Shown here piece by piece: positions 8,689-57,785 of a stretch of 64,000 nucleotides of DNA. The translations under genes were made by a program, and so were the position numbers. How positions within the stretch are numbered: position 1 is the first letter of the stretch; every line of letters begins with the position of its first letter. Below the pieces are notes generated by a model. It did not search any database. It was not told the DNA's origin and was given only the letters and a program-made list of their open reading frames with translations. The stretch is from an uncultured virus (IMG/VR IMGVR_UViG_3300035130_000204) (taxonomy: Duplodnaviria; Heunggongvirae; Uroviricota; Caudoviricetes): the IMG/VR virus record IMGVR_UViG_3300035130_000204; one strand, given 5' to 3'.

Positions 8689-9300
8689 GTGCAGCCGGTG
8701 GCCAGCTCTTCCCAAAACGTGCGCGTACAGAAGTATTTGGGAACACCACAGACCGTCATCGAAATGGTTCGCGCGGCCAACGGCAACCGCGGATCTAAGT
8801 CATTTCAGTTGCGTGAGCGCGTCGAGGACGTTGTCCGTGGCGTGAGGCCTCGATCCTACTGGAGCGAGGTGCTGGCGATCTATTACTGGTGCTGCGGGCC
8901 GCAGTTCCGATACACGCACGACCCGCTGAGGGTAGAGCAGGTCAAGGACCCGCTAAGAATTCTGCACGAGATCGACACGAAGGGCTCGACGCTCGTCGAC
9001 TGTGATGATTTCGCGACGTTCATCCTGGCGTGCCTGGGTACCATCGGGGCGCGAGGTCGAATCGTTACCGTCGGCTTCGTGGATGCGTCGAATCACAAGG
9101 CGAACCCGAGGGCGCTCGATGATCCGGAGCTTCGGTTGATGACCTCGCCTCATTCGAGGCTTCCTGGTCCATTCACTCACGTGTTCTGTCAGGGGCGAAA
9201 GGGTCCCGACACTTGGGTTACCCTGGACCCCGTTGCGGGTCCGCGAACTGCAAAAATGCACAGGCGTGTCAAGCAGGTGCGCATCTACGTGCCCGACTAG
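8689..9300 (+). CDS. Transglutaminase-like (papain-fold) cysteine protease, candidate virion maturation protease
   Basis: FRYTHDP, VDCDDFA (Cys), FTHVFCQ (His), WVTLDP (Asp) in the order typical of transglutaminase-like proteases. Confidence 0.8.
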   Translation: MQPVASSSQNVRVQKYLGTPQTVIEMVRAANGNRGSKSFQLRERVEDVVRGVRPRSYWSEVLAIYYWCCGPQFRYTHDPLRVEQVKDPLRILHEIDTKGSTLVDCDDFATFILACLGTIGARGRIVTVGFVDASNHKANPRALDDPELRLMTSPHSRLPGPFTHVFCQGRKGPDTWVTLDPVAGPRTAKMHRRVKQVRIYVPD

Positions 9301-9314: not shown

Positions 9315-10181
9315 ATGCGAAACGGGCGAAACGGCGTGTCCAGGTGGCAGAACCTCGGTGATGACTTCGACGGCATGTACGGAGACGACACCAGCGACGA
9401 AGACGTCGAGTACGTCGGCGTTGTCGAGGAAGAGGCTACCGCTGGCATGGGCAGCAACGGTGTAAGACCTGTCCCGAGCACGGTTTCACAAATGAGGATG
9501 CGACCCAGGGCACAACGTCCGGGGGCTGCGATTCCTCAACCTCAGCCACCTGATCAGCCCGTGGTCGTACCGACAGCGAGCGGTGAGGTCCGTCTGAATG
9601 CGGACGCTGTGCGCATGGCGCAGCAGTCGCCGACCATGGAAATGGGCGGCAAGGCGGTGAAGCGGGCTCAGCCTGGCACCTACCTCGTCATGGAGCCGAG
9701 CCGGTGGAACCGACTCGGCCAGGTGCCCGTCGAGGCTGCCTACGCGGGTCTCGGCTCCAGCAACACCCGTAGCGGTGGTGGTGGGTTCGACTGGGGTGGC
9801 CTGGTCTCTGGAGTCCTGGAGACGGGTGGCCAGATCACGGGCACCGTCCTGCAGTACCAGCAGAGCCAGGCCGAGCTTCAGGCTCGTCGTGAGGCGGAAC
9901 GCGCAGCGCGAGATGCACAGCTGGAAGCGGCTCGTGCAGAGCGAGCCTCTGCTTCGGAGCAGGCACAGCGCGACTTCGAGCTGCAGCTCGAGCGCATCAG
10001 GACGTTGCGCGAGGCTGGGCGCGAGGAGGAGGCTCGAGCTGTAGAAGAGCAGCTTCCTGTAGCGGCTTCAACGGGCCCTTCGCCGGTCGTGTGGGTTCTC
10101 GGTGCCCTGGTCTTGGCTGGCGGCATCGGTGCCGTCGTCTACTTCGTCACGAAGAAGGACAAGGACAAGGGCAAGGACTAG
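9315..10181 (+). CDS. Putative virion membrane protein with C-terminal TM anchor
   Basis: RBS GGAGGAG; C-terminal hydrophobic helix followed by KKDKDKGKD; contains VEAAYAGLG, identical to a segment of the 17837 protein. Confidence 0.75.
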   Translation: MRNGRNGVSRWQNLGDDFDGMYGDDTSDEDVEYVGVVEEEATAGMGSNGVRPVPSTVSQMRMRPRAQRPGAAIPQPQPPDQPVVVPTASGEVRLNADAVRMAQQSPTMEMGGKAVKRAQPGTYLVMEPSRWNRLGQVPVEAAYAGLGSSNTRSGGGGFDWGGLVSGVLETGGQITGTVLQYQQSQAELQARREAERAARDAQLEAARAERASASEQAQRDFELQLERIRTLREAGREEEARAVEEQLPVAASTGPSPVVWVLGALVLAGGIGAVVYFVTKKDKDKGKD

Positions 10182-10184
10182 CCG

Positions 10185-10622
10185 ATGGCTCTTGGTACGG
10201 ACTGGTCTGGGGTTGTCTCGGCTGTTGGTGGAGGTGTAGCGAACGCCTTCAACGTCGCCGCTCAGACAGAAGCACGTGCCGAGGCGGCACGTGTTGCCGC
10301 GGAGCAGCGTAGCTATGGGTGGGCTGAGGCCGCAGATATACAGAGACACGAGCGCGAGCTTGCAGAGCTGGACCGGCAAATTGAAGAAGAACAACGAAGG
10401 CTTCTCGCTGAAGGACGCCGCGCTATCGAGAGCGAGGAGCTTCAACTGCTTCAGGACCGCCGCCGCCGTGCTGTGAGCGAGGCAGCTGCAGCACGAGCTG
10501 CTCGTGATGCGGCGCTCGCCCGCCGTGTGCGCATACCTGCGTGGGGGTGGGTCGCTATCGGCGTGGTAGCCATCGGTGGCGTTTTCGGTCTGGTGGCCTG
10601 GCGCGCTACAGCCCAGGAGTAG
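10185..10622 (+). CDS. Putative virion membrane protein (coiled coil plus C-terminal TM)
   Basis: MALG start, coiled-coil middle, C-terminal WGWVAIGVVAIGGVFGLVAW. Confidence 0.75.
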   Translation: MALGTDWSGVVSAVGGGVANAFNVAAQTEARAEAARVAAEQRSYGWAEAADIQRHERELAELDRQIEEEQRRLLAEGRRAIESEELQLLQDRRRRAVSEAAAARAARDAALARRVRIPAWGWVAIGVVAIGGVFGLVAWRATAQE

Positions 10623-10638
10623 AAAGGTATTAAAGAGT

Positions 10639-11232
10639 ATGTACGAGTACACGCGATCGTTCGGAGGGCTCGGCGCACTCGGCTATTCCTATCCTCGAGG
10701 GACCTGCACCGAGGTGAGCGGCGGCGAGCAAAGGTGCTTTCGCCCGAGGGAGGAGAGCATCGCAACGCGTGCCGGGTGCAGCGACACTGGCGACGCCTGC
10801 GAAGTCGGAGGTGACACCGGTGCGCTCTACTGTTGCCCCGCGACCGCAGGTCTCCGGAGGCCTGCAGGATCTCCAGCCCCATCTGGCGAGGGGGCTCCTG
10901 CGGAAGAGGGTGAGCGAAAAGGTGTCTGGGAGACAGTCACCGAGTGGTTCACGGCTGGAGGAGAGCGAGTCACTGATCGACCTGCTCCAGCCGGAGCTGC
11001 GAAAGCGTCGGGAGCACCCGCTGGAGGTACTCCGACACCTGACGGGTTCGCTCAGTACGCAAGAGAGGTCGCCGGAAGCGAAGCAGCTCGTCAGGAGATG
11101 GAGAGCCTCCCCATCGAGGACGAGACCGAAGCTCCCTGGTATCAGCGGTATCAGACGCACATCACCATTGCTTCGACTGCCCTAGGTCTAGTGACTTTCC
11201 TTGGTTGGCTGGCGCTGCGAAAGAAGGACTAG
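10639..11232 (+). CDS. Cys-rich membrane protein (MYEY-leader family)
   Basis: MYEYTRSFGGLGALG leader; CxEVSGGxQRCFR..GC..C..CCP; C-terminal TM followed by RKKD. Confidence 0.75.
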   Translation: MYEYTRSFGGLGALGYSYPRGTCTEVSGGEQRCFRPREESIATRAGCSDTGDACEVGGDTGALYCCPATAGLRRPAGSPAPSGEGAPAEEGERKGVWETVTEWFTAGGERVTDRPAPAGAAKASGAPAGGTPTPDGFAQYAREVAGSEAARQEMESLPIEDETEAPWYQRYQTHITIASTALGLVTFLGWLALRKKD

Positions 11233-11235
11233 CCG

Positions 11236-11934
11236 ATGCCCCTGGGCGATGCAGCCAGAGCAAGGCAGCTTTACGCCGAGGCGGAGCGTCTGTACCAGCA
11301 GCGCCGTTACCGCGAAGCTGCGCGCCGGTACATGGACAGCTACCGCGAGGTCGAGGGTTCTTCTGACGAAAACCCAACACCCATATGGGCCGCTGCGCAG
11401 GCATACGAGCGGGCTCAGGATTGGGGCGCCGCGATCCAGCACTACGAGCGTGCTGGGCGCGAGGGCTATGCCTACCGCGGAACGCGAGAGCTAGAGTGGT
11501 ACCCCGAGTCGGCGCACCAATCGGCGGCACGACTGCGTCGCGCACATCCTGAGGCTGCCGGTGAACTCTCGCCGCCGTCGGAGCCATCAGCGCCGACGAC
11601 CGAAAAGGGTGTCATCGAGGAAGTTTGGGACTGGGTGACCGGCGGTGGTGGCGACGAGCCGGCTGCGGCAACAAGCGTGGGGGCAGCGACAAAGCGCGCA
11701 CGTACTGAGGATGTGAGAGAGACCGTAGGCGCTGCTGCGAGCAAGTTTGCGACCGATACGGCCAGACAGACTGCGGCTGTCGAGCGAGGTCCTGCACCGA
11801 GAGTTCAGATGCCGGCTAGGAGCACACCTTCTTGGGTGCCCTATGCAGTGCTCGGAGCAGCAGGGCTCGGAGTCGTCGCTGTCGTCGGATATTTCCTGAC
11901 ACGCAAGACCACGCCTGAGGGCGAGGAGGATTGA
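11236..11934 (+). CDS. TPR-like membrane-anchored protein
   Basis: A..LY....Y.EAA..Y and AQAYERAQDWGAAIQHYERA TPR-like helices; C-terminal TM followed by RK. Confidence 0.7.
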   Translation: MPLGDAARARQLYAEAERLYQQRRYREAARRYMDSYREVEGSSDENPTPIWAAAQAYERAQDWGAAIQHYERAGREGYAYRGTRELEWYPESAHQSAARLRRAHPEAAGELSPPSEPSAPTTEKGVIEEVWDWVTGGGGDEPAAATSVGAATKRARTEDVRETVGAAASKFATDTARQTAAVERGPAPRVQMPARSTPSWVPYAVLGAAGLGVVAVVGYFLTRKTTPEGEED

Positions 11935-11935
11935 T

Positions 11936-12388
11936 ATGCCCGACAACGGCAAGCCAAGCAAGAGAGTCGTGCAGAAGCCGAAGGGCCCGAAGCCGGCTCT
12001 GCAGGTCGTCGGAGGAGCTAAGCCGACCGGCAAGCTCCCGAAGGTTGTCGGGGCCGGCATCTTCGGGTTGCCAGGTCAGGACGAGGGAGTCTTCTCTTCG
12101 GATGCAAAGCCCATTGCGGCTGCGGGCATCTTCTTCAATCCCTACGCCGTGACCAACATCGCCATGGAGCAGCCGTCGACCAGCTGGACGCTTCTGCGCC
12201 GGCCTGGTCAGCCGCTCTATCCTGGCTCCTCTGCGCGAGGCATCGTGCTCATTGGTCCGTCGATGGGCGACAACGGTGATGGGAACGGTGAGCAGCAGGC
12301 TGGCGTCTGGGGACGCCCTTTGCTTTTTGCGCTCATCGGAGCTGCTGGAGCCTACGCTTTCTGGAAGCTCATTCTCGAGGGGAAGTGA
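11936..12388 (+). CDS. Small membrane-anchored protein
   Basis: C-terminal TM; GIFG / DEGVF / GIFF motifs; SMGD. Confidence 0.7.
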   Translation: MPDNGKPSKRVVQKPKGPKPALQVVGGAKPTGKLPKVVGAGIFGLPGQDEGVFSSDAKPIAAAGIFFNPYAVTNIAMEQPSTSWTLLRRPGQPLYPGSSARGIVLIGPSMGDNGDGNGEQQAGVWGRPLLFALIGAAGAYAFWKLILEGK

Positions 12389-12395
12389 GGCAACC

Positions 12396-12857
12396 ATGGC
12401 GCTCCTGTCGCAGCGGCCAGTCGTCGTCGACATGCGGTTCATCAATCCGCACGTCAAGAAGGGCGACTTCTACCTGATCAAGAGCCCAGTGAGCGGTCGT
12501 AACTACTACGTCTACCCCAGGATGGTTGGCCGCAAGAAGGGTCAGCGCTATATGCCTGGCTCAACGGGTCGCTTCCCTGTCGTCGAGGGCTTGGGCGACG
12601 ACGGCGATAGCAACTACATGCAGTTTTTCGAGGCCAGCCGCGACTTTCGTCAGGCGGCCATAAGCGAGGCTGTCGACACTGCGGAAGAGCTTCAGCAAGC
12701 GGCCGAACGGTTTCCGCGCAGCAACCTGAATGTACCTGCCGTTCCTTCTCCGGCAGGGTCGGTCAGTCCAGGTCAGGGCCGGGACCTCATGGTTTTTGGT
12801 CTGCTGGCCCTCGGAGCGATCGGCGTGGGCTACGTGCTTCTGAGGAAGAAGGACTGA
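12396..12857 (+). CDS. Small membrane-anchored protein
   Basis: RBS GAGG; EGLGD motif; C-terminal TM followed by RKKD. Confidence 0.7.
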   Translation: MALLSQRPVVVDMRFINPHVKKGDFYLIKSPVSGRNYYVYPRMVGRKKGQRYMPGSTGRFPVVEGLGDDGDSNYMQFFEASRDFRQAAISEAVDTAEELQQAAERFPRSNLNVPAVPSPAGSVSPGQGRDLMVFGLLALGAIGVGYVLLRKKD

Positions 12858-12869
12858 GGGAGGAGCGAC

Positions 12870-13586
12870 ATGTACGAGTACAACAAATCTTACGGTGGCC
12901 TCGGGTGGCTTTGGGCATCAGGATCATCGGAGCGTTTTCCTGGTGGCCGACGCGTCTGCTTTCGTCGGGACGAGGAGCAGTTCGCCTCGACACGTGGTTG
13001 CCAGCCCATTGGTGGCATTTGCAGGCTCGGAGACGGGAGCACCAGGCCGGCTCAGTGCTGTCCCGGCGACGACATGAAGACGCTGTGGGAATGCCCGTCG
13101 GGTTGGGAGACGGCGTCGGCTGCTCCAGCCACAAGCAGTGGTGCGCCGAGCAGAACGGAGGTCAGAAGGCTGCAGAACGCAATTTTGCAGTCAGGCTGCA
13201 CTCTGCCGAGGTATGGCGCTGACGGACGATGGGGCTCGGAGACCGAGGCAGGCGTCCGTTGCATGGCAGGGCGAGTGGGTTGGGCCGGCATCAGCTCGGG
13301 CTTCCCGTGGGTAGCGGCTTTCATGGCCACAGGAGCAGGAGCGGGCGCAAGGCCAGGCGCGGGGCCAGGCGCGGGGCCAGGCGCGGGGCCAGGCGCAGGC
13401 ATAGGCCCCGGCGTAGGCCCAGACAGAGAGACCCGTCCTGGCTTCATGTCAGCGCTGCCAGGTCCGTTGGGCGAATGGTGGTTCTGGGTGGCCTCTGCAG
13501 GAGTCGTGGGTCTTGGGGTGCTCGGCTACACGCAACTCAAGAAGAAGGACGAGGACGAGGAAGAGGAGCTGGGCCAGCAGTTCTGA
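12870..13586 (+). CDS. Cys-rich, peptidoglycan-binding-domain membrane protein (MYEY-leader family)
   Basis: MYEYNKSYGGLG leader; CFR..GC..C..CCP; PG_binding_1-like EVRRLQNAI....YGADGRWGSETEAGVR; GPGA linker; C-terminal TM followed by KKK. Confidence 0.75.
   Translation: MYEYNKSYGGLGWLWASGSSERFPGGRRVCFRRDEEQFASTRGCQPIGGICRLGDGSTRPAQCCPGDDMKTLWECPSGWETASAAPATSSGAPSRTEVRRLQNAILQSGCTLPRYGADGRWGSETEAGVRCMAGRVGWAGISSGFPWVAAFMATGAGAGARPGAGPGAGPGAGPGAGIGPGVGPDRETRPGFMSALPGPLGEWWFWVASAGVVGLGVLGYTQLKKKDEDEEEELGQQF
13351..13398 (+). repeat. 12-bp tandem repeat encoding a (GPGA)n linker
   Basis: GGCCAGGCGCGG repeated about 4 times in frame. Confidence 0.85.
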
Positions 13587-13598
13587 GGGAGGCGTTCG

Positions 13599-13928
13599 AT
13601 GGACTGGAAGAAGCTTGCTTTGGCAGGTGGTGCAGCCACGGGCGTGTGGTTGCTGATTCGGCATCATCAGAGGTCTACGGTGCCGACTGATGTTCATGCT
13701 TCCGAGGCCGTCAATCGAGCCATCGAGGAGGCTGTGCCAGTGACTTCCGCAGAGGAGCCGACGCCAGAGCAAGCTCAAGACCCGGCTTTCTGGGAGGCGA
13801 TGGCGCGTAACATCGTCGCTGACCTGGGTCTGGGCGCTCTGCCTCCATGGCCTGGTATTGGTCCCGTTCCACATCCGAGCCTAGGGCCCGTGTGGTCTAC
13901 GACAAACTGGTCCGTTACCTGGAGGTAG
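13599..13928 (+). CDS. Small protein with N-terminal TM
   Basis: RBS GGGAGG; MDWKKLALAGGAATGVWLLI; internal DLGLG. Confidence 0.65.
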   Translation: MDWKKLALAGGAATGVWLLIRHHQRSTVPTDVHASEAVNRAIEEAVPVTSAEEPTPEQAQDPAFWEAMARNIVADLGLGALPPWPGIGPVPHPSLGPVWSTTNWSVTWR

Positions 13929-13931
13929 ACC

Positions 13932-14345
13932 GTGTACGAGTTCGACGCGAGTGGCCTCGGATTCACGAACTGGCGCACCTCGCCAGGTGATCCGTGCAGT
14001 GAGGTCTCAGGTGGTCAGCAAAGGTGCTTTCGTACGACGACCGTAGCTGGCGACTGCCCACAGCACGGCGGTCAATGCCCGCCAGAGCAGGAGTTTGCGG
14101 CAGCGCAAGGTTGTATCTCGCGTCGCGAGCCGTGCTCGACGAGCGCAGGCAACCCGGGCATCGTCTGGTGTTGCCCTCCAGGGTGGCCACTGCAGCCGGG
14201 GTCGCCGCCACTCGGCCCTGGTGAGCGACCTCCACAGGCTCCGGTGGTTCCTGCAAGTGTCGCGCGGTATGCGCCTTGGGTCGTGGCAGTCGCAGCTGCT
14301 GGGGGCGCGCTCTGGTACTACATGCGCCAGAAGGGGCGCGTGTGA
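13932..14345 (+). CDS. Cys-rich membrane protein (MYE-leader family)
   Basis: GTG start, YEFDASGLG leader; CSEVSGGQQRCFR..GC..C..CCP, paralogous to 10639; C-terminal TM. Confidence 0.75.
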   Translation: MYEFDASGLGFTNWRTSPGDPCSEVSGGQQRCFRTTTVAGDCPQHGGQCPPEQEFAAAQGCISRREPCSTSAGNPGIVWCCPPGWPLQPGSPPLGPGERPPQAPVVPASVARYAPWVVAVAAAGGALWYYMRQKGRV

Positions 14346-15052
14346 TGTACGAGCGAGACCAAGGAATGGGTTACTCCCCTGCACCGGGGTATGTGAAGGC
14401 AACGACTCCAGGCGCGTGCGGCCCAGGCGCAAGCGTTTACTGCGTATCAAACCTTCCTGAGGATGTAGCTTGGCGAAGTATGACACGGCCGGACGGACGT
14501 CCGCAGTGTCAGCCAGTACGCATGGGTATCTGGGGAAGGTCGTGTCGTACGACAGACAGAAACGAAGGTCAGTATTATTGCTGCTACGATATCGCACCGA
14601 GTCTTTCTACCGTAGAGCAAATCGAATGGGCACAGGAAGAGGGTGCTCCTTTGTCTGCGCGTCGGTGCGAACGAGATCGCGTCGATCGCGGCCTGATGCG
14701 CAACGAGTCTCAGCGCGCCATCTGGGACATCCAGGATCGCCTGTGCAGTCAGCGCATGGATTCGGGACCTGTCAGCGGCGTCGTTTCGAGGGCGCTGGTG
14801 GACGCTGTGCGCCGCGTGCAGCGCCAGCATGGCATCACCATCAACGGCCAAGTCGACGCAGTCACGGCGCAGGCGATGGGGTTCGCTCCTGCAGATGCAC
14901 AGAGAATCGCTGCCGCTGTGGCTCGCTCTGGTGTCGGAACAAGTCCGGATGAACCTCCGCCGCTGTCGTTCAACCCCTGGTTGTTCGGCGCAGCAGCAGC
15001 AGCGGCTGGTTTTCTCGGATTCGCTTACTACCAGTACTCGAAGGCGAGGTAG
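14345..15052 (+). CDS. Cys-rich, peptidoglycan-binding-domain membrane protein (MYE-leader family)
   Basis: MYERDQGMG leader; Cys cluster ending YYCCY; PG-binding-like IQDRL...GPVSG...AVRRVQRQHGITINGQVDAVTAQAM; C-terminal TM. Confidence 0.75.
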   Translation: MYERDQGMGYSPAPGYVKATTPGACGPGASVYCVSNLPEDVAWRSMTRPDGRPQCQPVRMGIWGRSCRTTDRNEGQYYCCYDIAPSLSTVEQIEWAQEEGAPLSARRCERDRVDRGLMRNESQRAIWDIQDRLCSQRMDSGPVSGVVSRALVDAVRRVQRQHGITINGQVDAVTAQAMGFAPADAQRIAAAVARSGVGTSPDEPPPLSFNPWLFGAAAAAAGFLGFAYYQYSKAR

Positions 15053-15054
15053 AC

Positions 15055-15321
15055 ATGGAGCGCAATCCTGTTTGGTTGGTCCCTGCGCTTCTTGCAGCAT
15101 CGGCAATAGGAGGAGCGATCGGCTGGAGCGCCCTGACGTCAGGTCCTTCCGAGCCAACGGCCGAGCAGAGGGAAGTCGCGCAGAGAGCTGCAGTGACTGA
15201 GCGACTACGAGCCCAGATGGCGCTAGATACCTTTCAGCCCGTCCTGATGGCCGCCATCCCGCTGATGGTTGCCGGTGGAGCCTTCTTCATGTGGAAGGCG
15301 CACCAGGAGACTTCGGCGTGA
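15055..15321 (+). CDS. Small two-TM protein
   Basis: MERNP start; two hydrophobic segments. Confidence 0.65.
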   Translation: MERNPVWLVPALLAASAIGGAIGWSALTSGPSEPTAEQREVAQRAAVTERLRAQMALDTFQPVLMAAIPLMVAGGAFFMWKAHQETSA

Positions 15322-15746
15322 GTTCTCAGTACGCTCGTGGCAAGGCGTGGACGAACGTGCGGCCAGGATCGCTCGGTGCGCACAATGTCGTTTCGGCATG
15401 GAATTGGAACACGGGCCAGTACGACTACTACCGAATTCCCAAGCCGCTAGCGCCGCGATACGGTGACGAGGTCAAGCCGCCGTCTCCTGGAGTGTCCTTG
15501 GCTGGACTGGGCGAAGACCCTGATCAATCGGCACGTCCTATTCCATTCGGTGCACGGAAGGTGGGAAGCGGATCGCAGGCGCTTGGCGACATCGTGTCGC
15601 CCGATAGCGTGTCGGCGGGACCGGCGGCTTGGGTCGGCGTCGCAGTGGCCATCGCCATACCCGTGGGACTGCTTTTTGTTACGGCAAACCTCAAGGACTG
15701 GCTCGGTTTCGAAGAAAAATCACAGCGAGTCGAAGAAGCACTTTAG
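15318..15746 (+). CDS. Membrane-anchored protein
   Basis: GTG start after AGGAGA; SAWNWNTGQYDYY, LAGLGED; C-terminal TM. Confidence 0.65.
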   Translation: MSSQYARGKAWTNVRPGSLGAHNVVSAWNWNTGQYDYYRIPKPLAPRYGDEVKPPSPGVSLAGLGEDPDQSARPIPFGARKVGSGSQALGDIVSPDSVSAGPAAWVGVAVAIAIPVGLLFVTANLKDWLGFEEKSQRVEEAL

Positions 15747-15755
15747 GAGAATCCG

Positions 15756-16499
15756 ATGTCGAAACGCCGAATCGACTTGACGAAGATCCTCGAGGACCCA
15801 GAACAGCGCAAAGATCTGATGGTCCGGACCATCGTCGCTACTCAGGCGCGTGAGGGCATCGACGTGTCTTTCGAGGATGCCGAGGAGGCCTATGAGCGCA
15901 TCCAGGAGGAGCTGCGGCGCAAGGCTGCTATGCGCGAGAACCCTGGATTTGTCCGCAACGACGAGCAAAGCCTTGCTGGCGCTGTGCGGACCTACGAGCG
16001 CTTCCATGACGGCGAAGCTGGATTGGGTGCCTATCCGTTCAATGGGCGCAAAGAAGGCATCTTCCCGCTACCTGCCTATGTGCAGTGGCCCTGGGGCGTC
16101 GAGGTATTCGGTCAGGCTGTGCGAACGCTCTACGAGAGCGACAAGTGGCACCCGAAGGGCGACACGACGCAGTACTATCACGATCACGATGGCGGCGTGA
16201 CGTTCTACGTGCCTGCGGGGGAAGGCGAAGGTGAAGTTGTCCCGTTCAAGCACGAGTGGCCCGAGGAGGTTGCTCTTCTTGGTTCGTGCATCGGCTTCGT
16301 GGTCAAGGACGGCGCTGGAGAGCTTGCCGAGGGGATTATGAGCGGCAAGAACATCCTGGTGGCCTCGCCGGACGGTTGGGTCAATCCCAAGAAGCCGAAT
16401 CGTGTGTTCCTGGCCATCATCAACCTCGATGGCGGTGGTGTCGAGGGCATCATCGATGGTGGCAAGCTGCGAATTACTTCGCACGGGATCGAGGGTTAG
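15756..16499 (+). CDS. Hypothetical protein, two modules joined at RENP
   Basis: RBS AGGAG; helical N-terminal part, then YERFH..LYESDKW..YYHDH; ends ITSHGIEG. Confidence 0.75.
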   Translation: MSKRRIDLTKILEDPEQRKDLMVRTIVATQAREGIDVSFEDAEEAYERIQEELRRKAAMRENPGFVRNDEQSLAGAVRTYERFHDGEAGLGAYPFNGRKEGIFPLPAYVQWPWGVEVFGQAVRTLYESDKWHPKGDTTQYYHDHDGGVTFYVPAGEGEGEVVPFKHEWPEEVALLGSCIGFVVKDGAGELAEGIMSGKNILVASPDGWVNPKKPNRVFLAIINLDGGGVEGIIDGGKLRITSHGIEG

Positions 16500-16501
16500 C
16501 A

Positions 16502-16825
16502 ATGCGTGTCTTTCCGAAGTACCTCGAGAAGGCAGCGGCGCTGATGTGGAGGATGAACGAAGACTACTGGCGTTTGCGAAAAAGCGCCGATAATGCCATC
16601 GATCGCGGCGATTACGCTGCGGCAATCACTGACGCCGAAGACGCAGTCGAGATAAGCGCGCTGTACATGCACATTGGCTTCGCAATCCGTCCTCGTGACG
16701 AACGAGAGGGTCTGCGTGAGTTCAATCGCGAGACCGGTGAGTGGTATCAGGGCATAGAGCAATCCTATCGTGAGGCGCGCAGGCCTCCTGCGAACTTGTT
16801 CGCGAAACTGTTCGGAAGGGGCTGA
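16502..16825 (+). CDS. Hypothetical helical protein
   Basis: Fills the gap between neighbours; RBS GAGG. Confidence 0.6.
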   Translation: MRVFPKYLEKAAALMWRMNEDYWRLRKSADNAIDRGDYAAAITDAEDAVEISALYMHIGFAIRPRDEREGLREFNRETGEWYQGIEQSYREARRPPANLFAKLFGRG

Positions 16826-16826
16826 C

Positions 16827-17378
16827 ATGTACGAGTACCAACATGCTTTCGGGGCGCTCGGAACGAACGGAAAGACCAGTGCGTCGTTGCCACCAGAACG
16901 TCCATCGATTCCTAGCGGTCCCGTGACGAGTGAGCAGATCGACGAGTTCGTGCAGGAGCATCGACAGTACGAGCACGCCGTCGAGCAGCAGCGTGAATCG
17001 GAGCGCCAGGAAGAACAGGCGCGGTGGATGCTCAACGCTGCCCAACGTGCTGCGTACTTTGAGCAGAACCCAGCTGCTCTCGCTGCTGCCCAGTTTGGCG
17101 GCTGTCTTTTCGGCTCGCTGATTTGGGGTGCCATCATCGGCGCCATAGCGTCCCCCAAGGGTGAGCGTGGTGGTGGTGCCAAGTGGGGCATCCTGGGTGC
17201 AATGGCAACATGCCCGTTGGTTCCTCTGTGGACTCGCATCGGATACGTCGGCACTGTCCTCAACGTCGTGCTTGCCATTGGTGCGCCCATCGCAGCTGCT
17301 CGCTACCGCCTCGAGCGCGAGCGCGAGCGCGAGCGAGCGGCACTGCCTGGTCGTGTCGCAGAAGGAGGCCGTCCGTGA
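16827..17378 (+). CDS. Multi-TM protein (MYEY-leader family)
   Basis: MYEYQHAFGALG leader; three hydrophobic segments. Confidence 0.7.
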   Translation: MYEYQHAFGALGTNGKTSASLPPERPSIPSGPVTSEQIDEFVQEHRQYEHAVEQQRESERQEEQARWMLNAAQRAAYFEQNPAALAAAQFGGCLFGSLIWGAIIGAIASPKGERGGGAKWGILGAMATCPLVPLWTRIGYVGTVLNVVLAIGAPIAAARYRLERERERERAALPGRVAEGGRP

Positions 17379-17707: not shown

Positions 17708-17752
17708 GTACGATCAAGAACCTTGACATAGTACTGAGGACGTTCGTAGACT
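17700..17752 (+). promoter_or_regulatory. Putative promoter of the core/capsid operon with two palindromic sites
   Basis: CGTCCTGAGTACG (17700-17712); TTGACA(17723)-N18-TAGACT(17747) with AGTACTGAGGACG (17730-17742) in the spacer. Confidence 0.65.
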
Positions 17753-17836
17753 CATCTTGCCTCAACCAAAAGTCCCCGCCCCATAGGACTGGAAGACAGA
17801 GGCGTCTTTCAACTCCATTGCGGAGGCGGGTGACCT

Positions 17837-20638
17837 ATGGCAAAAGGCTTCACCATCAATCGACCGAAGGCGCGGCGCAATCCAGAGCGCCTCACCCTGG
17901 TCAACCCTCGTCCTCGCGCAACTTCAGGGTGGTTCTCGACCAGCAGGTCGTCGTCGACCTCGTCTCCGGCCGAAAACCCCAAGCGCAAGGGCCAGAAAAA
18001 GCGCGTGACCCGACTGGCGAAGCCAGTTGGTGAAAAAGCGAAATCGGCTGGAAAGAAGCGCTCGACAAAGAAGTCGAGCACTCGAGCTTCGCGCTCTGGC
18101 GCGAAGAAGACGCAGCGGCAACGGCGCCAGCCCCGCACTGCCGCAGGGAAGAAGAAGACAGTGGCCAAGAAGACCGTGAGGTACGGCCGGGCGGTTTCGA
18201 CCCGCAAGAAGGCCGCGCCGAAGCGTAAGCGCAACGCTGCGCCGAAGCGGAACGCCTCCACCAAGAAGGCCCCTCGGGGCAAGGTCTGGCGCAAGGGCTA
18301 CGTGACCTCGACAGGCAAGCGCGTCAAGGGTGCCTGGGTCAAGAAGCCGAAGCGCAACCCCTTCGATGCCCAGGGTCGCTACTACACGGCGACCGTCGGC
18401 ACCGGCAAGGGCAAGCGGAAGGCGCAGACGATCCCCACCAAGAAGCAGGTGGAGGCGGAGGCCGAGCGCCGCAAGCGCAGCCGTGCGGCCAAGAAGGCAG
18501 CGGCGACTCGTGCTGCCAAGGCTGGCAAGAAGGCCGCTCCGAAGCGCAAGCCCGCCAAGAAGGCGCCGAAGAAGAAGAGGACCGCTGCCAAGAGGAGGCC
18601 CGCCGTGAAGCGTGCTCGATCCAAGACCCCGCGGTACTACCGGAAGAGTTCCGGTGCACCCAAGGCCGGGATGACCTGGCGGAAGGGCTACACCCGCAAG
18701 GACGGCACGCGCGTGTCGGGCATGTGGGTCAAGAAGGGCGGGACGAAGAAGCGCAAGAAGGCCGCTGCGAAGCGGAAGACGACCTACAAGCGCAAGCCTC
18801 GCGTGAGCGCCGGCCGCGGTCGGACCAAGAAGGGCAAGATCACCGTTCGTAGGAAGAAGACCTCCTACATGAGCGGGGGTCGCGCGGGACGCTACCGCGT
18901 GCGCACCAAGGCCAAGCGCTACGGCAAGCGGAAGAGCTACCTCCGCAGCTACCCGAAGCGGCGCCGGGTGCAGGCCAAGAAGAAGACCTACAAGCGGCGC
19001 TACCCGAAGAAGTACGTTCGGCGTTCGCGCGGCGGGAAGGTTTGGGTCAAGGGCTACACGCGCTCGGACGGCGTGAAGGTCAAGGGCCACTGGATGCGCA
19101 AGCCCAAGCGTGGTCGCTACGCGATCACGGGCTCCGGCAAGGCGCGCAAGATCGCAGCCAACCCTGGTCGGAAGCGCAAGCGCAACATGGGTCGCAAGAA
19201 GAATCCGTACAAGCGCACGGGCTACAAGGGCGGCAAGATCCGGGTCAAGGGCTACTCCTACAAGCACCCGCGTACCGGCAAGATCGTGCGCGTCAAGGGC
19301 CACAGCCGCAAGCAGTGGTACCCGAAGCGGTACCCGCGTCGCGGCAAGGGCTCCAAGTGGCTCAAGCAGCGCGACAGCTACCGCCATGGCCTCATGAGCA
19401 AGTACGAGGCCAAGCGCTTCGGCTTCGCCGCCAACCCCGGCGCGCTCGCGATGCTGCCCACGAAAGACCAGTTCATGGCAGTGGGCAAGGCTGCTGGCGT
19501 CGGAGCCATCGGCTTTGCTGGGTCAGTTGCCATCGGCAGGATGTTCGGCCGAATCGGCTTCATCGATCGCACCTTCGGCAGCTGGTCACCGGTGGTCGGC
19601 AACGTTCTCGGAGGTCTCGGCATGTGGATGGCAGCCAACGCCATCGACAATCCGCGGCTCAACGAGATGAAGCCGTTCCTGGTGGTCGGTGCTGGTGTCG
19701 CCGCTGCTGTCAACCTGGCACTGAACGTCATCGCTCGAGGCTGGGTGCCGCAGGGCTACGCCGCATGGTTCATGCCGGGCGCTGGGGCAGTCGAGGCGGC
19801 TCCGGCGGCAGCTGTGGCTCCCGACAGCCCGGCTGCTGGCCTCGGTCAGATCGATGTCTACGAGGCAGCTCTCGACGGCTTCGGTGACATCGAGACCGAC
19901 CTGGAGCGCGAGCTGGAGCGCATGAGCGGCGATGACGGCATCTTCGGCGACCAGGGCGTCTTCGGCGAGTACCTCGAGACCCCCATGGGCGCAATGGTCG
20001 AGGAGGCCTTTGCAGGCGGCGGAAGCGGCGGCGTCGGCGAGTACCTCGAGACCCCGATGGGCGAGTACCTCGAGACCCCCATGGGCGCGATGGTCGAGGA
20101 GGCCTACGCGGGCATGAACGAGTACCTCGAGACCCCGATGGGTGAGTACCTCGAGACCCCCATGGGCGCGATGGTCGAGGAGGCCTACGCGGGTATGGGC
20201 GCGCAGGTCGAGGCGGCCTACGCGGGCCTCGGTCAGGCCAGCGGCAACGGCAACGGGTGGGCAGCCTTCGAGCAGTCCATTCAGGCCAACCCGCTGATGC
20301 CAGGCTTCCGGTCCGCTGTTCAGAGCCTCGTGCGCAAGCGTATCGCCGCGGGTCAACCCCTCGACGACGCGTTCTACGCGAAGCTCGGCCGCGCTTCGGC
20401 GCAGCTGGCCAAGCAGAAGTTCCAGCAGCGCGTGCAGCAGGTCCAGGGGCGACCCACCGACCTGCCGGTCGAGCGTTGGAAGGCACCGCTGCTTCGCACC
20501 TCGGCGCCGACGTACAAGAAGAACATCGGCGATCCGAGCATGACCCCGGGCTGGCCGGAGCGCATCCCGGCGGCCGGACCTCAGGCCGGTGAAGGCATCT
20601 TCTTCGGCACGGGGGACAAGGACGAGGGCGTCCTGTAG
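17837..20638 (+). CDS. Tripartite core-like protein: Lys/Arg-rich DNA-binding region, TM segments, acidic repeat region
   Basis: About 530 N-terminal aa extremely K/R-rich with W[RV]KGYxxxxGxxVxGxW repeats; hydrophobic helices; EYLETPMG repeats; very strong G/C-ending codon bias. Confidence 0.8.
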   Translation: MAKGFTINRPKARRNPERLTLVNPRPRATSGWFSTSRSSSTSSPAENPKRKGQKKRVTRLAKPVGEKAKSAGKKRSTKKSSTRASRSGAKKTQRQRRQPRTAAGKKKTVAKKTVRYGRAVSTRKKAAPKRKRNAAPKRNASTKKAPRGKVWRKGYVTSTGKRVKGAWVKKPKRNPFDAQGRYYTATVGTGKGKRKAQTIPTKKQVEAEAERRKRSRAAKKAAATRAAKAGKKAAPKRKPAKKAPKKKRTAAKRRPAVKRARSKTPRYYRKSSGAPKAGMTWRKGYTRKDGTRVSGMWVKKGGTKKRKKAAAKRKTTYKRKPRVSAGRGRTKKGKITVRRKKTSYMSGGRAGRYRVRTKAKRYGKRKSYLRSYPKRRRVQAKKKTYKRRYPKKYVRRSRGGKVWVKGYTRSDGVKVKGHWMRKPKRGRYAITGSGKARKIAANPGRKRKRNMGRKKNPYKRTGYKGGKIRVKGYSYKHPRTGKIVRVKGHSRKQWYPKRYPRRGKGSKWLKQRDSYRHGLMSKYEAKRFGFAANPGALAMLPTKDQFMAVGKAAGVGAIGFAGSVAIGRMFGRIGFIDRTFGSWSPVVGNVLGGLGMWMAANAIDNPRLNEMKPFLVVGAGVAAAVNLALNVIARGWVPQGYAAWFMPGAGAVEAAPAAAVAPDSPAAGLGQIDVYEAALDGFGDIETDLERELERMSGDDGIFGDQGVFGEYLETPMGAMVEEAFAGGGSGGVGEYLETPMGEYLETPMGAMVEEAYAGMNEYLETPMGEYLETPMGAMVEEAYAGMGAQVEAAYAGLGQASGNGNGWAAFEQSIQANPLMPGFRSAVQSLVRKRIAAGQPLDDAFYAKLGRASAQLAKQKFQQRVQQVQGRPTDLPVERWKAPLLRTSAPTYKKNIGDPSMTPGWPERIPAAGPQAGEGIFFGTGDKDEGVL
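19967..20233 (+). repeat. In-frame coding repeats EYLETPMG x5 and [AM/AQ]VE[EA]A[FY]AG x4
   Basis: GAGTACCTCGAGACCCC[CG]ATGGG repeated five times. Confidence 0.9.
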
Positions 20639-20808
20639 CTCATCAACCTGTCGCGGGGCTAGAGGGACGCCTCGAAGAGCGGTTTTCCGGACCGCCTGCC
20701 CCGCGGCATAAACAAATTCCGGGAGTGCTCGTTCCGGAGCGGGCGTAGGGCGTAGCGAAGGGGAGACCACCCCTGGCCGAGAGGCCGAATCACTGGAAGG
20801 AGATAGTC

Positions 20809-21456
20809 ATGCCCGCAATCGTCGGCGTCATCGAGCGCCTCCACCAGCCTCTGTACGACACCCTCTGCCGTGGCGTCGCCACCGCGACCGTCAACATCGG
20901 TCCCGGCGGCCAGCCGGTCGGCACCCAGACGCGCCTGTTCTCGGGCGCCAACCTGGGCAACCGCGCCTGGACGAACATGAAGGTCGCCGGTCAGCTCGTC
21001 GCCGACCGTACCTTCAAGATCAAGGCGCTCCGCGTGCTCACGCACTTCCGTGCGGGTCTTCAGACCGCGGCGCTGGCCGGTCCTCCGGCCTACTTCGTCC
21101 ACCGGCTGTACCTGCAGTGCCAGTCGCAGCTGTTCTGGACGCTGAACGTCGGTGACAAGCCGCAGTTCGTGGCCGGGACGCACTACATCCCGATGGCCGC
21201 TGGCATCTACGGCGACGTGGGTGGCGACACGAGCCTCGTGCTCATCAACAACGGCGTGCCGAGCCACGCCGCGCTGCTCCGCCTCGGCCGGCCCATCAGC
21301 GTGCCGCCGCGCCAGGGCATCGAGGTCCTCGCCGAGATCTTCCAAATGAACAACACCGGCGACCACAGCCTCGACGCGGCCCTGAACGCGAACGACGACA
21401 TCGCCAAGGACGTCAAGTACTTCCTGGACGGCCTGGCGACGCGAGAGGTGCAGTGA
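20809..21456 (+). CDS. Candidate major capsid protein (beta-rich, single jelly-roll-like)
   Basis: 215 aa, alternating beta-strand pattern, extreme codon bias, RBS AAGGAG, follows the core-like gene and precedes a strong hairpin; fold is inferred, not shown. Confidence 0.55.
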   Translation: MPAIVGVIERLHQPLYDTLCRGVATATVNIGPGGQPVGTQTRLFSGANLGNRAWTNMKVAGQLVADRTFKIKALRVLTHFRAGLQTAALAGPPAYFVHRLYLQCQSQLFWTLNVGDKPQFVAGTHYIPMAAGIYGDVGGDTSLVLINNGVPSHAALLRLGRPISVPPRQGIEVLAEIFQMNNTGDHSLDAALNANDDIAKDVKYFLDGLATREVQ

Positions 21457-24176: not shown

Positions 24177-24986
24177 ATGGCAAAAAAGAAGACACTGTGG
24201 ACGCCTCCTCGAGACCCGAAGACCGGAGCCTTCAAGCCACGCGAAGAGTGGACAAAGAGTGAGGAGCGCGCCTATCGCAAAGCGCAGCGAGAAGGGCGCA
24301 TAGCGGCGGCCAAGCAGGCAAAGAAGATGCCGCGCGGTCCACATGGGCGCTTTGTCTCTCCAACGGGCAGGACCAAGCCAAGGAAGGCTGCATCGTCGGC
24401 TGCACAGCCAGTGTACGTCGAGCAGGAGTGCCCACCGTGTGTCCCTGAGTTCCCAGGGTTGGAGTCGCGAGTGGCTCAGCCGCTGGCTACGACGTCTGCT
24501 CAGGTCGCGCAGATTCAGGCGGACATAGCTGAGATGAAGGCGCGACTGAGGCTTGCACCGGCGCAGCCTCAGGCGAACCCGATCGAGACGCTGACCATCG
24601 TCAACGGTGTTGGCGAACGCGAACAGACGCAGATGACGAAGCTGTGGGATTCGATCAAGGACAACCCCCTGCTCGCCGCCGCTGCGGTTGGCGCTGTGGT
24701 CCTGATCGGTTACCTGATGTACCGCTCGTGGCGGCGTTCGCAGGAGCAAACTGGCGTTGCAGAGCCAGAACCGCAGCCAGTCACAGGTGGTCTGATGCAA
24801 CCACCTGGTGGCGCCCTTCCGCCTACGACCGTTCGTCCTGCGGACGTGATTCCAAAGCATCCTACGTACAGGCTGGTTCAACCAACGATCGGCGACACAC
24901 TCATGAGGCCGAACGTCAACGTCGAGCAGCAAGAGCTTCCGGGGCTCGAGGGCGCCGATGGCGACGGCGAGGGCATCTTCACGTGA
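24177..24986 (+). CDS. Basic N-terminus, central TM protein
   Basis: RDPKTGAF and RGPHGRFVS basic hairpin motifs; TM; ends DGDGEGIFT. Confidence 0.7.
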   Translation: MAKKKTLWTPPRDPKTGAFKPREEWTKSEERAYRKAQREGRIAAAKQAKKMPRGPHGRFVSPTGRTKPRKAASSAAQPVYVEQECPPCVPEFPGLESRVAQPLATTSAQVAQIQADIAEMKARLRLAPAQPQANPIETLTIVNGVGEREQTQMTKLWDSIKDNPLLAAAAVGAVVLIGYLMYRSWRRSQEQTGVAEPEPQPVTGGLMQPPGGALPPTTVRPADVIPKHPTYRLVQPTIGDTLMRPNVNVEQQELPGLEGADGDGEGIFT

Positions 24987-25840
24987 TCCGTACGGCTGAC
25001 AGACGTCCTGAGGAGAACGGAATCGGAGACGTCTTCGGCCGAGCGGTCGAGTTTGCAAGGGCCAACCCTCTTCTGACGGTTGCTGGAGTCAGCGCAGTCG
25101 CGCTCGGTGGTGTCGCCATCGGAGCGCTGCTACTGCAGCGTGGCGACAACGTCATCATCTACCTCGATCAGGGCGAGGGCTCGGGCGAGTTTCGCACGGT
25201 AGCCAACCGAATGGCTGGCGTTATCAACGCCAGCATCTATCCGGCACACAACGGCCAGCAGGTGCTCGATGCGCTGAGTCGCCACCGTCGCATCAAGACG
25301 CTGATCTTCGCCGGCCACGGGACGACGACCCAGTTTCTCCGGCCTGGCCGGGGTGGAATCCGTGTTGGTACGGACGCACTGCCCACCTGGATCTCTACGG
25401 GTACGCTCGCGCGCGTACTTTCCTTTAAGATGGTTCCTGGTGGCGTCATCAGCTGGGCTGGGTGCAGCGCAGCGTCGAACCCCGGCGAATCCAGTTGGAG
25501 CTACAGGTCCTACGGTCCCGGAGGCGAGCGCAGCTTCATAGCTCGAGTGCGCGACAGCATGGCTAGGTTGCCCTGGACGGCATGGGGCATCGAGCACCGC
25601 GGGCACTCGTCACCGGGCCACACCACGGCGAATCCTGCGGCCAGAGCTTGCGACGTTGCTTTGTGGGAGATTGGTCAGCCCTGCGATTCATTCATGGACG
25701 AAGAGTGGGGAGAGGGCTCATACGAGAGCCAGCACCGACAGTGGGCAGCCGCCTTCGAAGGCCAGGCTGCTGAGGCATGGATGACGGGAGCTGACGTCGA
25801 TGTGCCGCGTGGTGCAGCTGTCGAGGTGAGGTACGCGTGA
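24983..25840 (+). CDS. Membrane-anchored caspase-fold-like (C80 / DUF4347-like) putative cysteine peptidase
   Basis: N-terminal TM; LIFAGHG (His) and ISWAGCSAA (Cys) dyad pattern; GTG start overlaps the previous stop. Confidence 0.5.
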   Translation: MIRTADRRPEENGIGDVFGRAVEFARANPLLTVAGVSAVALGGVAIGALLLQRGDNVIIYLDQGEGSGEFRTVANRMAGVINASIYPAHNGQQVLDALSRHRRIKTLIFAGHGTTTQFLRPGRGGIRVGTDALPTWISTGTLARVLSFKMVPGGVISWAGCSAASNPGESSWSYRSYGPGGERSFIARVRDSMARLPWTAWGIEHRGHSSPGHTTANPAARACDVALWEIGQPCDSFMDEEWGEGSYESQHRQWAAAFEGQAAEAWMTGADVDVPRGAAVEVRYA

Positions 25841-27039: not shown

Positions 27040-27606
27040 ATGGCAACGAGCCGCAAGAAGACCGCCAAGAAGAAGACGACTGCGAAGCGTCGGCCGGCGG
27101 CCAAGAAAAAGACAACCAAGAAGAACGCCGCCAAGAAGGTCCTGAAGTGGGGCAAAGGCGTCGTCCATCCTGTGACAAAGCGTCCTTGCGGCGGAAGAGC
27201 TATGTCGCAGCGCGACCAAAAGCTCTTCACACGCATGGGTAAGCGTCGCGCTGGCGTGACGCCGACCAAGGTGCGTGAGGCCTATGGGCTGAAGAAGCCG
27301 GCTCGCCAACCTGCCAAGAAGAAGGCGGTCGCAAAACGTCCAGCTCGCAAGGCTGCGACCAAGCGCAAGCCTGCGAGGAAGGCCGCTCCGAAGAAGCGCA
27401 CGATGGCCGCCAAGAAGAAGGCGCCCAAGGGCTACCGTGAGAAGAAGGTCAGTCCTGGCCGGTCCAGGTTCAAGTACGTCATCTTCGATGCAAGCGGGCG
27501 TGACCACTATGGCTGCAACAAGCTGACGGACGCACGCCGAAAGCTCAAGGAGCTGAAGGCGGAGAAACCCAAGGCAAAGCTGCAGATCTACGAAATGAAG
27601 GGCTAG
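27040..27606 (+). CDS. Histone H1-like basic protein
   Basis: RBS GGGAGG; K/A/R/P-rich PAKKK and PARKAA repeats. Confidence 0.75.
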   Translation: MATSRKKTAKKKTTAKRRPAAKKKTTKKNAAKKVLKWGKGVVHPVTKRPCGGRAMSQRDQKLFTRMGKRRAGVTPTKVREAYGLKKPARQPAKKKAVAKRPARKAATKRKPARKAAPKKRTMAAKKKAPKGYREKKVSPGRSRFKYVIFDASGRDHYGCNKLTDARRKLKELKAEKPKAKLQIYEMKG

Positions 27607-36224: not shown

Positions 36225-36421
36225 GCAAAACGACCAAGGAAAAGCTTGGGCGTATCGTTCTGCACCAGATGGTGCGCGAGGCGATTGTTAGGTGGTTACG
36301 AAAGGACGTTCTTGCACGGCGACTGATTCTTGAAGAGATCGAAGCGAACCCAGATGTTGGGGCTAAAGTGCAGCTCAAGGAGTACGGGCTCCGCATCCAC
36401 ATCACCAAGGAAATCAAATGA
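36221..36421 (+). CDS. Small hypothetical protein
   Basis: TTG start overlapping the previous stop; stop overlaps the next start. Confidence 0.45.
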   Translation: MSKTTKEKLGRIVLHQMVREAIVRWLRKDVLARRLILEEIEANPDVGAKVQLKEYGLRIHITKEIK

Positions 36422-40082: not shown

Positions 40083-40421
40083 GGTGGTCTCCTTTGGCTT
40101 GCGTCCTGAGGATGTCCGAGGGTAGCACATGCGATCCTGAAGACGTATTAAAAGGAGACACCTGCGAGCGGCTCTTTCTGTGGGATGGCCTAGATTGTGC
40201 GTCCAAGCATCAGGTCCAGCGCTTCAGGCTGCCCGTCGTAGATCCACGTGCCCGCGCTGCTGATAGCGACCACGAGCGTGATGATGGCACCAACGGTCTT
40301 AGCCTGCGAACCGTACTGCCCCAGCAAACCGTCTGCCATGCGTTCATGATGCCACTTCAACATCCTTAGGACGCTGGACCCCCCGTGCTAGACTGGCTTT
40401 GCCGGCCCAAGGAGGAACGCT

Positions 40422-51756: not shown

Positions 51757-51764
51757 GGCAAGCC

Positions 51765-53501: not shown

Positions 53502-53515
53502 TCTCGCCGTATCTC

Positions 53516-57781: not shown

Positions 57782-57785
57782 GACA

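Follow-up and report, generated by a model that had tools for sequence, protein, structure and literature searches.

A putative DNA-condensing core precursor encoded ahead of the single-jelly-roll capsid candidate in an apparently undescribed lineage of tailless viruses

Among membrane-containing icosahedral viruses, motorless packing of DNA has so far been encountered with small genomes, those of SPV1 (~20 kb), FLiP and the Odin group, and how the DNA gets inside the membrane in such viruses is an open question. In SPV1 a lipid layer encloses a nucleoprotein core in condensed form (PMC8459092), and a second source assigns no packaging ATPase to SPV1 or FLiP and one of the FtsK-HerA type to the helvetiaviruses (PMC8812541). 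Here we describe a gene in a stretch of 64,000 nucleotides from an uncultured virus, IMG/VR record IMGVR_UViG_3300035130_000204 (the whole stretch is referred to as the window), the product of which joins a protamine-like basic arm, a hydrophobic three-helix core and acidic repeats in a single chain of 933 aa. The reading preferred here, to which we give a probability of roughly 0.5, is that this protein, a precursor of the virion core, takes over the task of a packaging motor by condensing DNA on the viral membrane and undergoes later cleavage at Asn-Pro. The protein family to which it belongs is real, conserved and unannotated, and the virus lineage appears to be undescribed.

The open reading frame (ORF) of the precursor, 17837..20638 on the plus strand, has a ribosome-binding site. 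Residues 1-531 contain 199 lysines and arginines against 11 aspartates and glutamates and accommodate three strict copies of a W.KGY..xG.xV.G.W repeat, which start at residues 151, 281 and 403; a fourth copy, near residue 468, fits the pattern less closely. Asn-Pro (NP) occurs at positions 15, 23, 47, 174, 442, 456, 533, 605 and 818, taking up nine of the 22 asparagines of the protein, which contains no cysteine. Residues 673-800 are acidic (29 D/E vs two K/R), and this block is coded by tandem repeats of 24, 33 and 81 nt at 20036-20226. The preliminary description of this locus had listed about 530 aa of K/R-rich sequence, three to four hairpin-like repeats, NP motifs in the basic part (six are internal to the arm), an acidic repeat block and a helical tail, here predicted as a hairpin at residues 824-869, and all of these are confirmed. 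The codon bias that it pointed out is likewise present, with a GC content at synonymous third positions (GC3s) of 0.843, rank 5 among 56 called genes of at least 120 aa and below the capsid gene, which tops the list at 0.923; such usage fits high expression, the step from usage to expression being a deduction from sequence. Contigs from all four sequencing runs span the precursor stretch, with no indels listed at the level of contig comparison. One contig of run X3 omits one 81-nt acidic repeat unit (20062-20144), as a copy-number variant or an assembly collapse.

The family was delineated by retrieving 42 loci with the capsid protein and then locating the core domain upstream. It was present upstream of the capsid gene in 34 of these, and the remaining eight are cut off, four with the C-terminal part at the contig edge and four with <540 nt of upstream sequence, in keeping with the earlier placement of the precursor directly ahead of the capsid candidate. 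Precursor homologues of 400-1170 aa occur in three capsid clades, in all of which the order of basic arm, hydrophobic core and acidic repeats is maintained; core identity to the window protein drops as low as 12-20%. The 28 homologues analysed have arms of 179-705 aa with a net charge of +69 to +245, the rest of the protein carrying -25 to +5, and the core profile is matched by 19 longer and five shorter database entries, all of them lacking a family name. A core paralogue, composed of a 15-30-residue basic leader (RRNP-type), NP and an acidic tail, in most cases terminated by G[IV]F, is encoded outside the capsid operon in all eight small genomes and is not found in the window.

The building blocks of the arm and the acidic part vary with the clade. 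Arms in the clade of the window use KGY hairpins and GVxHP, KPGGGTY and VKSYLR repeats, and those of the other clades plain Arg-rich runs. The number of KGY hairpins, which the preliminary description had proposed to compare among relatives, ranges from 0 to 5 in the large clade and is 0 in all homologues of both small-protein clades, and these exchangeable hairpins were rejected as the defining module. GVxHP forms the folded part of the stand-alone protein encoded at 27040. The acidic repeats are of the [GS][ED]Y, VEEA (VEEALA) or EEELG type, depending on the clade. G[LMF]G, found at residues 593, 668, 681, 786 and 797, punctuates the acidic part of the window protein as had been noted, but it is not conserved as such, other clades using different acidic repeats; it was rejected as a conserved cut site, and a cut between anchor and acidic part therefore has no conserved site. 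G[IV]F is present in most precursor homologues, often terminally, and is enriched in the 101 hydrophobic proteins of six genomes (23 observed vs 7.9 expected).

Precursor, precursor pieces and capsid protein match no Pfam or PHROG family (E 0.01) and no NCBIfam entry near its cut-off; the capsid protein and the C-terminal half of the precursor match no phage record, with none in INPHARED for the group, and there is no sequence match among PDB chains. A search for relatives of the precursor by Atlas features returned viral clusters without a name at 0.86-0.87, which are leads only. All homologues seen are on contigs that are either viral or unbinned, with a jelly-roll capsid gene next to them, and none is in the exclusively cellular contexts that the preliminary description had named as speaking against its proposal; the one weak match in the cellular genomes searched with the precursor covers residues 2-50 and reads as a chance frame, so that these genomes provide no provirus and no host. 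Full-text literature searches, judged on titles and the opening lines of abstracts, brought up no description of the virus group or the protein, and virome-survey tables could list the group.

We envisage the virus as one of bacteria, large and tailless, whose particle would have a lipid membrane and a capsid of single-jelly-roll proteins, with the precursor as the main internal protein. Its three-helix core would seat many copies on the membrane, the protamine-like arm would bind the double-stranded DNA (dsDNA) genome and collapse it there, and docking on the capsid or other structural proteins would fall to the acidic repeats together with the GIF tail; the particle would thus form around condensed DNA rather than be filled by an ATP-driven motor. 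Asn-Pro would act as a processing signal throughout the virus, a cut at the junction separating arm from anchor and cuts within the arm yielding basic peptides of 8 to ~270 residues and leading to genome release, with the transglutaminase-like enzyme encoded at 8689 as the likeliest protease. That the precursor binds DNA and is located in the virion is likely; cleavage at NP is favoured with less assurance, and docking of the acidic part on the capsid is conceivable but somewhat doubtful. The broader proposition, that the lineage packs genomes of 76 to >180 kb without a motor, DNA, membrane and shell being co-assembled through one membrane-tethered precursor that scales in charge with the genome, and has a virus-wide Asn-Pro code, read by a protease of transglutaminase fold, for the loading, maturation and release of many virion proteins, is less likely than not and offered tentatively.

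The case for a signal at the junction comes from a profile that omits the junction itself, applied to 59 distinct cores for which sequence ahead of the core was available. Of the 33 'new' rows, about 7 repeat alignment rows exactly or nearly so, and the count excludes four proteins starting just after the junction (P0199-P0202), which may be naturally split forms or products of a start called too late; P0200 gave no match when used to search for loci. NP lies 4-18 residues ahead of the core profile in 56 of the 59 homologues, where chance for a span of 21 residues is ~0.21, the rows being related and so not 59 independent events. Within the 28 basic arms, 116 of 254 Asn precede Pro, vs a Pro frequency of 5.6%, and S, T, K, R, A and G precede Pro in 3-6%. 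The successor of Asn is Pro first, then Gly, Ala and Thr, and the NP of the arm mostly precedes R/K. NP is the most enriched non-homopolymer dipeptide in the window proteins (59 vs 26.4 expected); it is enriched in late genes, 1.8-fold in the morphogenetic region of relative G001 vs 0.88-fold in the other arm of that genome, and 2.15-fold in the 101 hydrophobic proteins, precursors included, vs 1.27-fold in 508 others. Orthologous neighbours also have it at corresponding boundaries, whether the setting is basic, acidic or N-terminal. The pattern resembles that of matured core precursors, in which a short motif is conserved at the domain boundaries of several virion proteins. Skipping of the picornavirus 2A StopGo type, the consensus of which (DxExNPGP) has NPG followed by P and acidic residues upstream, was considered and rejected, the residue after NP varying freely and the upstream residues being basic.

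The same signal could be read without any cleavage, the precursor keeping its virion role as a permanent adaptor of DNA, membrane and capsid in which NP is a structural or docking motif. NP at the junction, directly ahead of the first helix, would suit a helix N-cap; NP in the arm, mostly before R/K, could form Asx-Pro turns that bind DNA like SPKK, a known DNA-binding turn motif; and the short-leader paralogue, in 8/8 small genomes, would have little to release from 15-30 residues. SP (4.0%) and TP (3.5%) are, however, not enriched in the arms, NP occurs in acidic tails and ahead of soluble domains as well, and a conserved Cys-His-Asp enzyme accompanies the module, and such an uncut adaptor seems unlikely, although it is the alternative that fares best. 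Cleavage might instead be autocatalytic, the Asn side chain attacking upon assembly or entry and the enzyme at 8689 serving another job. The invariance of Asn and its preference for Pro, then Gly, Ala and Thr, would accord with this, and there is precedent: self-cleavage at Asn-Pro primes the membrane-active capsid protein of reovirus, mu1/VP5 (Asn42-Pro43 in mu1), and occurs in RsgI, in each case within a folded domain with activating neighbours (PMC10328401). Most of the sites in the present group lie in low-complexity sequence, K/R-rich or acidic, with no conserved flanks, and self-cleavage appears improbable.

If NP is cut in trans, the enzyme encoded at 8689 is the candidate. Its Cys, His and Asp are invariant in all eight aligned sequences, Transglut_core matches four of these eight family members (best E 1.3e-6), and a homologue is present in each of the nine relative genomes examined. 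This agrees with one of the two processing candidates put forward in the preliminary description, as far as triad and distribution go; cleavage itself is a matter of supposition, and whereas an NP cut, were it made, would probably be made by this enzyme, its overall assignment as the NP-cutting protease falls short of an even chance. In locus L009 the homologue is interrupted by a long, intein-like insertion. The other candidate, the protein encoded at 24983, did not hold up. It bears GH and W..CS motifs, a pattern that we take to be clan CD-like, and has a homologue in G001 and in 0/8 small complete genomes, all of which keep the NP junction; it was rejected as the general processing enzyme, the profile having been built from eight large-clade sequences, so that a distant form could be missed.

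The gene at 20809-21456 that follows the precursor we read, from its modelled structure, as encoding a single-jelly-roll capsid protein, its lineage assignment being not firm. Close homologues number 49 and lie on contigs as long as 270 kb, and at E 0.001 there are 256 representatives. The model is a beta sandwich with a predicted local distance difference test score (pLDDT) of 80.8, for which the best fold match in VIA (48,161 chains) is SPV1, with Z 8.2, a root-mean-square deviation (rmsd) of 3.3, 129 aligned residues and 6-9% identity; the capsid proteins of HCIV-1, HHIV-2 and P23-77 follow at Z 5.5-6.2, amid unrelated jelly rolls that score alike. The nearest named Atlas clusters are the PM2 P2 and PRD1 P3 jelly rolls at 0.75-0.77, as leads only. 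A second capsid paralogue lies at 39309-40130 on the opposite (minus) strand, distant from the operon, and distant paralogues are likewise encoded in G002, G005 and G008, whereas gene 21663 has no profile match to the capsid alignment. In locus L036 an endonuclease-like ORF stands between precursor and capsid gene, in L009 (9067-10492) such an ORF interrupts the capsid gene, and in L036 (7274-9238) and L039 (2-1111) the capsid gene is in tandem copies.

Whole-genome tests were carried out on ten relatives, G001-G010, in place of the genome of the window itself. Complete G002, for which 119 of 135 called genes were searched, encodes a GH25 endolysin with a peptidoglycan-binding domain, an M23 peptidase and an integrase, and in these 119 genes no terminase, portal or HK97 capsid family was found, the matches to tail families being weak beta-helix and M23 ones. 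This gene content points to a tailless virus of bacteria, and the search for a host among cellular genomes gave no match.

The AlphaFold2 model of the precursor core, built on a 30-row alignment, contains three confident helices (block pLDDT 85-91) of 28-29 residues, followed by a disordered acidic part. Transmembrane helices had been proposed for this region, and three helices are indeed predicted, of which only the third is clearly hydrophobic, the best 19-residue Kyte-Doolittle means in the window being 1.50, 1.20 and 2.15; among the 28 homologues a value of at least 1.6 is reached in 5, 6 and 13 for helices 1, 2 and 3. The core is probably membrane-associated and marginal as a set of transmembrane segments. 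Fold searches with the C-terminal model gave generic helical matches, none significant (best E 0.18 in BFVD; in VIA, photosystem I subunits with Z 8.3 at rmsd 9.4). Marginally hydrophobic, charged helices could also belong to an enveloped virion, in which the core would be a monotopic, matrix-like anchor on the cytoplasmic face, with arm, acidic repeats and capsid all on one side of the membrane. The neighbouring proteins, with C-terminal anchors, basic tails and in some cases Cys-rich or peptidoglycan-binding N-terminal parts, fit an N-out orientation by the positive-inside rule and would suit such a particle. Helices of 28-29 residues, three of them, can nevertheless span a bilayer, and the closest capsid folds (SPV1, HCIV-1, HHIV-2 and P23-77) come from viruses with a membrane inside the shell (for SPV1, PMC8459092); we regard an enveloped virion as quite improbable. 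A role outside the virion, as a membrane-bound nucleoid organiser or a host shut-off factor, functions in which basic low-complexity proteins are known, is most improbable in view of the fixed place at the head of the capsid operon in three clades, the conserved promoter and a codon bias near that of the capsid gene.

The proposal that the core precursor stands in for a motor draws on six-frame scans for GxxxxGK[ST] and on DUF87, Pox_A32 and Terminase_6N profiles with working controls. Eight complete relatives of 76-86 kb, classed with direct terminal repeats (G002-G005 and G007-G010), share no P-loop ATPase, and four of them have no credible one: the motif is absent from G002, occurs once across a stop in G003 and once in a 36-residue frame in G007, and is found three times in G010, in frames of 80-176 residues that are not gene-like. 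The P-loop proteins encoded in G001, G004, G005, G008 and G009 are AAA+, helicase or kinase-like, with no common type. DUF87 and Pox_A32 matched in 0/5 genomes (G001-G005) and Terminase_6N in 0/5 (G006-G010). The arm carries a charge of +245 in the 183-kb genome and of +97 to +136 in nine genomes of 76-86 kb, and 1215-1560 copies would neutralise the full genome in all ten genomes of known length.

Several observations weigh against a motor-replacing, proteolytically matured precursor. The scans would overlook a motor whose Walker A motif has degenerated or whose fold is a different one, and the window does encode AAA+ ATPases. The scaling of charge rests on one large genome, a correlation of arm charge with genome length within the small clade having been rejected (rho 0.32, p 0.40). 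Median helix hydropathies across the 28 homologues (1.44, 1.38 and 1.53) are below most of the 19 listed neighbouring anchors (1.27-2.47), and of these homologues 21 have central charges in helix 1 and 16 in helix 3. The junction reads RRNA in two of the 59 cores, with NP 8-9 residues earlier, and HND in one, and the N-terminal motif of the arm is VNG in seven small-clade proteins and VNP in others; Pro is thus not obligatory, and at the arm motif Asn is the constant residue. Genome-wide enrichment of NP is weak (49 vs 41 in G002, 39 vs 31 in G003), the longest NP-free stretch of the window precursor extends over 268 residues, and the junction could be explained by the frequent use of NP in capping helices and forming turns. 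We know of no protease of transglutaminase-like fold that cuts at Asn-Pro, and the enzyme at 8689 could be a cross-linker or a cell-wall enzyme instead. As to the capsid, a Z of 8.2 is near the level attained by unrelated folds, and Foldseek places the same viruses at E 0.007-0.01 (SPV1 8.7e-3), with none at E 0.001.

Table 1. Features of the precursor locus and related genes; positions refer to the window unless a locus is named.
Feature	Position	Strand	Basis
Precursor (main finding)	17837..20638	+	ORF call; no Pfam/PHROG/NCBIfam family
Basic arm, residues 1-532, net charge +188, 6 internal NP	17837..19432	+	composition
KGY hairpin-like repeat 1 (residues 151-168)	18287..18340	+	pattern suggests hairpin fold
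KGY hairpin-like repeat 2 (residues 281-298)	18677..18730	+	pattern suggests hairpin fold
KGY hairpin-like repeat 3 (residues 403-420)	19043..19096	+	pattern suggests hairpin fold
Looser fourth KGY-type repeat (residues 468-490)	19238..19306	+	sequence pattern
Junction Asn533-Pro534, arm/core boundary, candidate processing site	19433..19438	+	alignments and junction-blind profile
Conserved three-helix hydrophobic core (543-571, 574-602, 606-633)	19463..19735	+	AlphaFold2 and hydropathy
Acidic, mostly disordered repeats (GEYLETPM, VEEAYAGM)	19829..20236	+	composition, AlphaFold2, tandem repeats
Predicted helical hairpin of tail (residues 824-869), clade of the window only	20306..20443	+	AlphaFold2 block pLDDT 76-93; homologue sequences
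GIF motif, C-terminal, acidic context	20594..20602	+	sequence pattern
Sigma-70-like promoter (TTGACA, 18 nt, TAGACT) heading the precursor-capsid operon	17723..17752	+	pattern scan
Structured RNA, Rfam int-alpA match, precursor stop to capsid start	20652..20723	+	44.2 bits (gathering 35.8); covariation
Single-jelly-roll major capsid protein candidate	20809..21456	+	predicted structure, fold matches
Transglutaminase-like Cys-His-Asp enzyme, candidate maturation protease	8689..9300	+	invariant triad, Transglut_core
Membrane-anchored protein, conserved GH and W..CS motifs, large clade only	24983..25840	+	alignment; no family/structure match
Stand-alone basic protein with GVxHP module	27040..27606	+	module also inside arm of four homologous precursors
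Short-leader core paralogue	L047 1698-2280 (-); L049 3300-3947; L055 3901-4626 (-); L058 18155-18841

The surroundings of the precursor are also conserved in part (Table 1). The scan for sigma-70-like promoters found one, vs 0.3 expected, and its -35 box is TTGACA or TTGACT at the same place in all eight aligned large-clade loci. The RNA between precursor and capsid gene (20639-20811) displays two-sided changes at 16 of 27 predicted pairs across 10 loci, and a small hairpin 5' of the capsid start is seen in all three clades. A conserved 5' leader of the precursor (17770-17836; 6200-6296 in locus L001) contains a CCTGTCCC-like stretch that is predicted to pair with the ribosome-binding region, with little covariation and more weakly in the window, and translational self-control by the basic arm is a possible role. 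Directly upstream of the gene at 8689, in both size classes, an 826-aa protein (6097-8577) has a long charged, probably coiled-coil region and is a better scaffold candidate than the acidic repeats, for which the preliminary description had suggested that role. Small proteins that end in a membrane anchor and a basic tail are encoded in a row over 9315-17378; several of them have Cys-rich parts, a domain that binds peptidoglycan or a MYE(Y)...G[LM]G leader, the last perhaps a second signal for sorting or processing. A conserved gene at 15756-16499 (FH...YxSDKW...YxH[DE]H[DE]), found in all three clades and usually after NP, possibly encodes a metal-binding enzyme. Helix-turn-helix repeat proteins and SGNH-like and JAB/RadC-like domains, assigned by eye, are encoded at 49043-52373, each flanked by NP or a membrane anchor, and could be cargo carried in the virion; a large cluster of glycosyltransferase-like or sugar-modifying proteins, likewise assigned by eye (35472-39312 and 52697-63741), suggests a glycosylated virion.

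The complete relatives are four times larger than the genomes for which motorless packing is on record and share no motor, and one candidate protein may link DNA, membrane and shell, so that the idea is open to a single-gene test. Should motorless packing and the Asn-Pro code both hold, the system would be categorically new, and would include a protease of unusual Asn-Pro specificity; the capsid, core and protease profiles serve in any case as markers for a group that has no match in INPHARED, PHROGs or Pfam. Terminase_6N was found in 0/5 genomes, and HK97 capsid, portal, terminase and tail families were not found among the 119 genes searched in G002, the weak tail-family matches aside, which sets the group apart from Caudoviricetes. 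The capsid candidate has single-jelly-roll capsid proteins of Halopanivirales (Helvetiavirae) among its fold matches, and adjacent jelly-roll-like genes and many small membrane proteins are common to both, but the FtsK-HerA packaging ATPase is not found in the complete relatives, and the group is therefore not placed in Halopanivirales. The likeness to Portogloboviridae, represented by SPV1, lies in the predicted fold of the capsid candidate, a single jelly roll with SPV1 as best match, and in the lack of a detected packaging ATPase in the relatives. The genomes, however, are of 76-183 kb or more with terminal repeats rather than circular dsDNA of ~20 kb, and signs of a bacterial host (GH25 endolysin, M23 peptidase, integrase, sigma-70-like promoter) replace the Sulfolobales; size and host argue against membership of Portogloboviridae. 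Whereas SPV1 has a separate nucleocapsid protein, VP1, arm, core and acidic repeats here form one chain, which resembles the nucleoprotein and the subcapsomer layer of SPV1 joined together.

Among proteins that undergo processing, reovirus mu1 and RsgI have one site in a folded domain, in contrast to the many NP sites in many proteins of the present group. The term 'Gag-like' in the preliminary description is apt as an analogy, membrane-binding, nucleic-acid-binding and assembly parts being united in one chain as in retroviral Gag, and not as homology: the capsid is a separate gene, the basic arm comes first, in reversed order, the nucleic acid is DNA rather than RNA, Pfam yields no match to a Gag family (MA, CA, zinc-knuckle NC), and the protein is devoid of cysteine. 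The core precursors of African swine fever virus (ASFV), pp220 and pp62, and of adenovirus, pVII and pX, are matured by a virus-encoded cysteine protease at a motif common to virion proteins. Like them, the precursor described here would be tied to an inner membrane or to DNA, its cleavage being a proposal; those two viruses are eukaryotic, with double jelly rolls, a Ulp1-like protease, Gly-Gly sites and an ATPase, and no homology was detected. If the proposal is correct, the precursor would be a prokaryotic, independently evolved counterpart of the core polyproteins that undergo maturation in large DNA viruses of eukaryotes.

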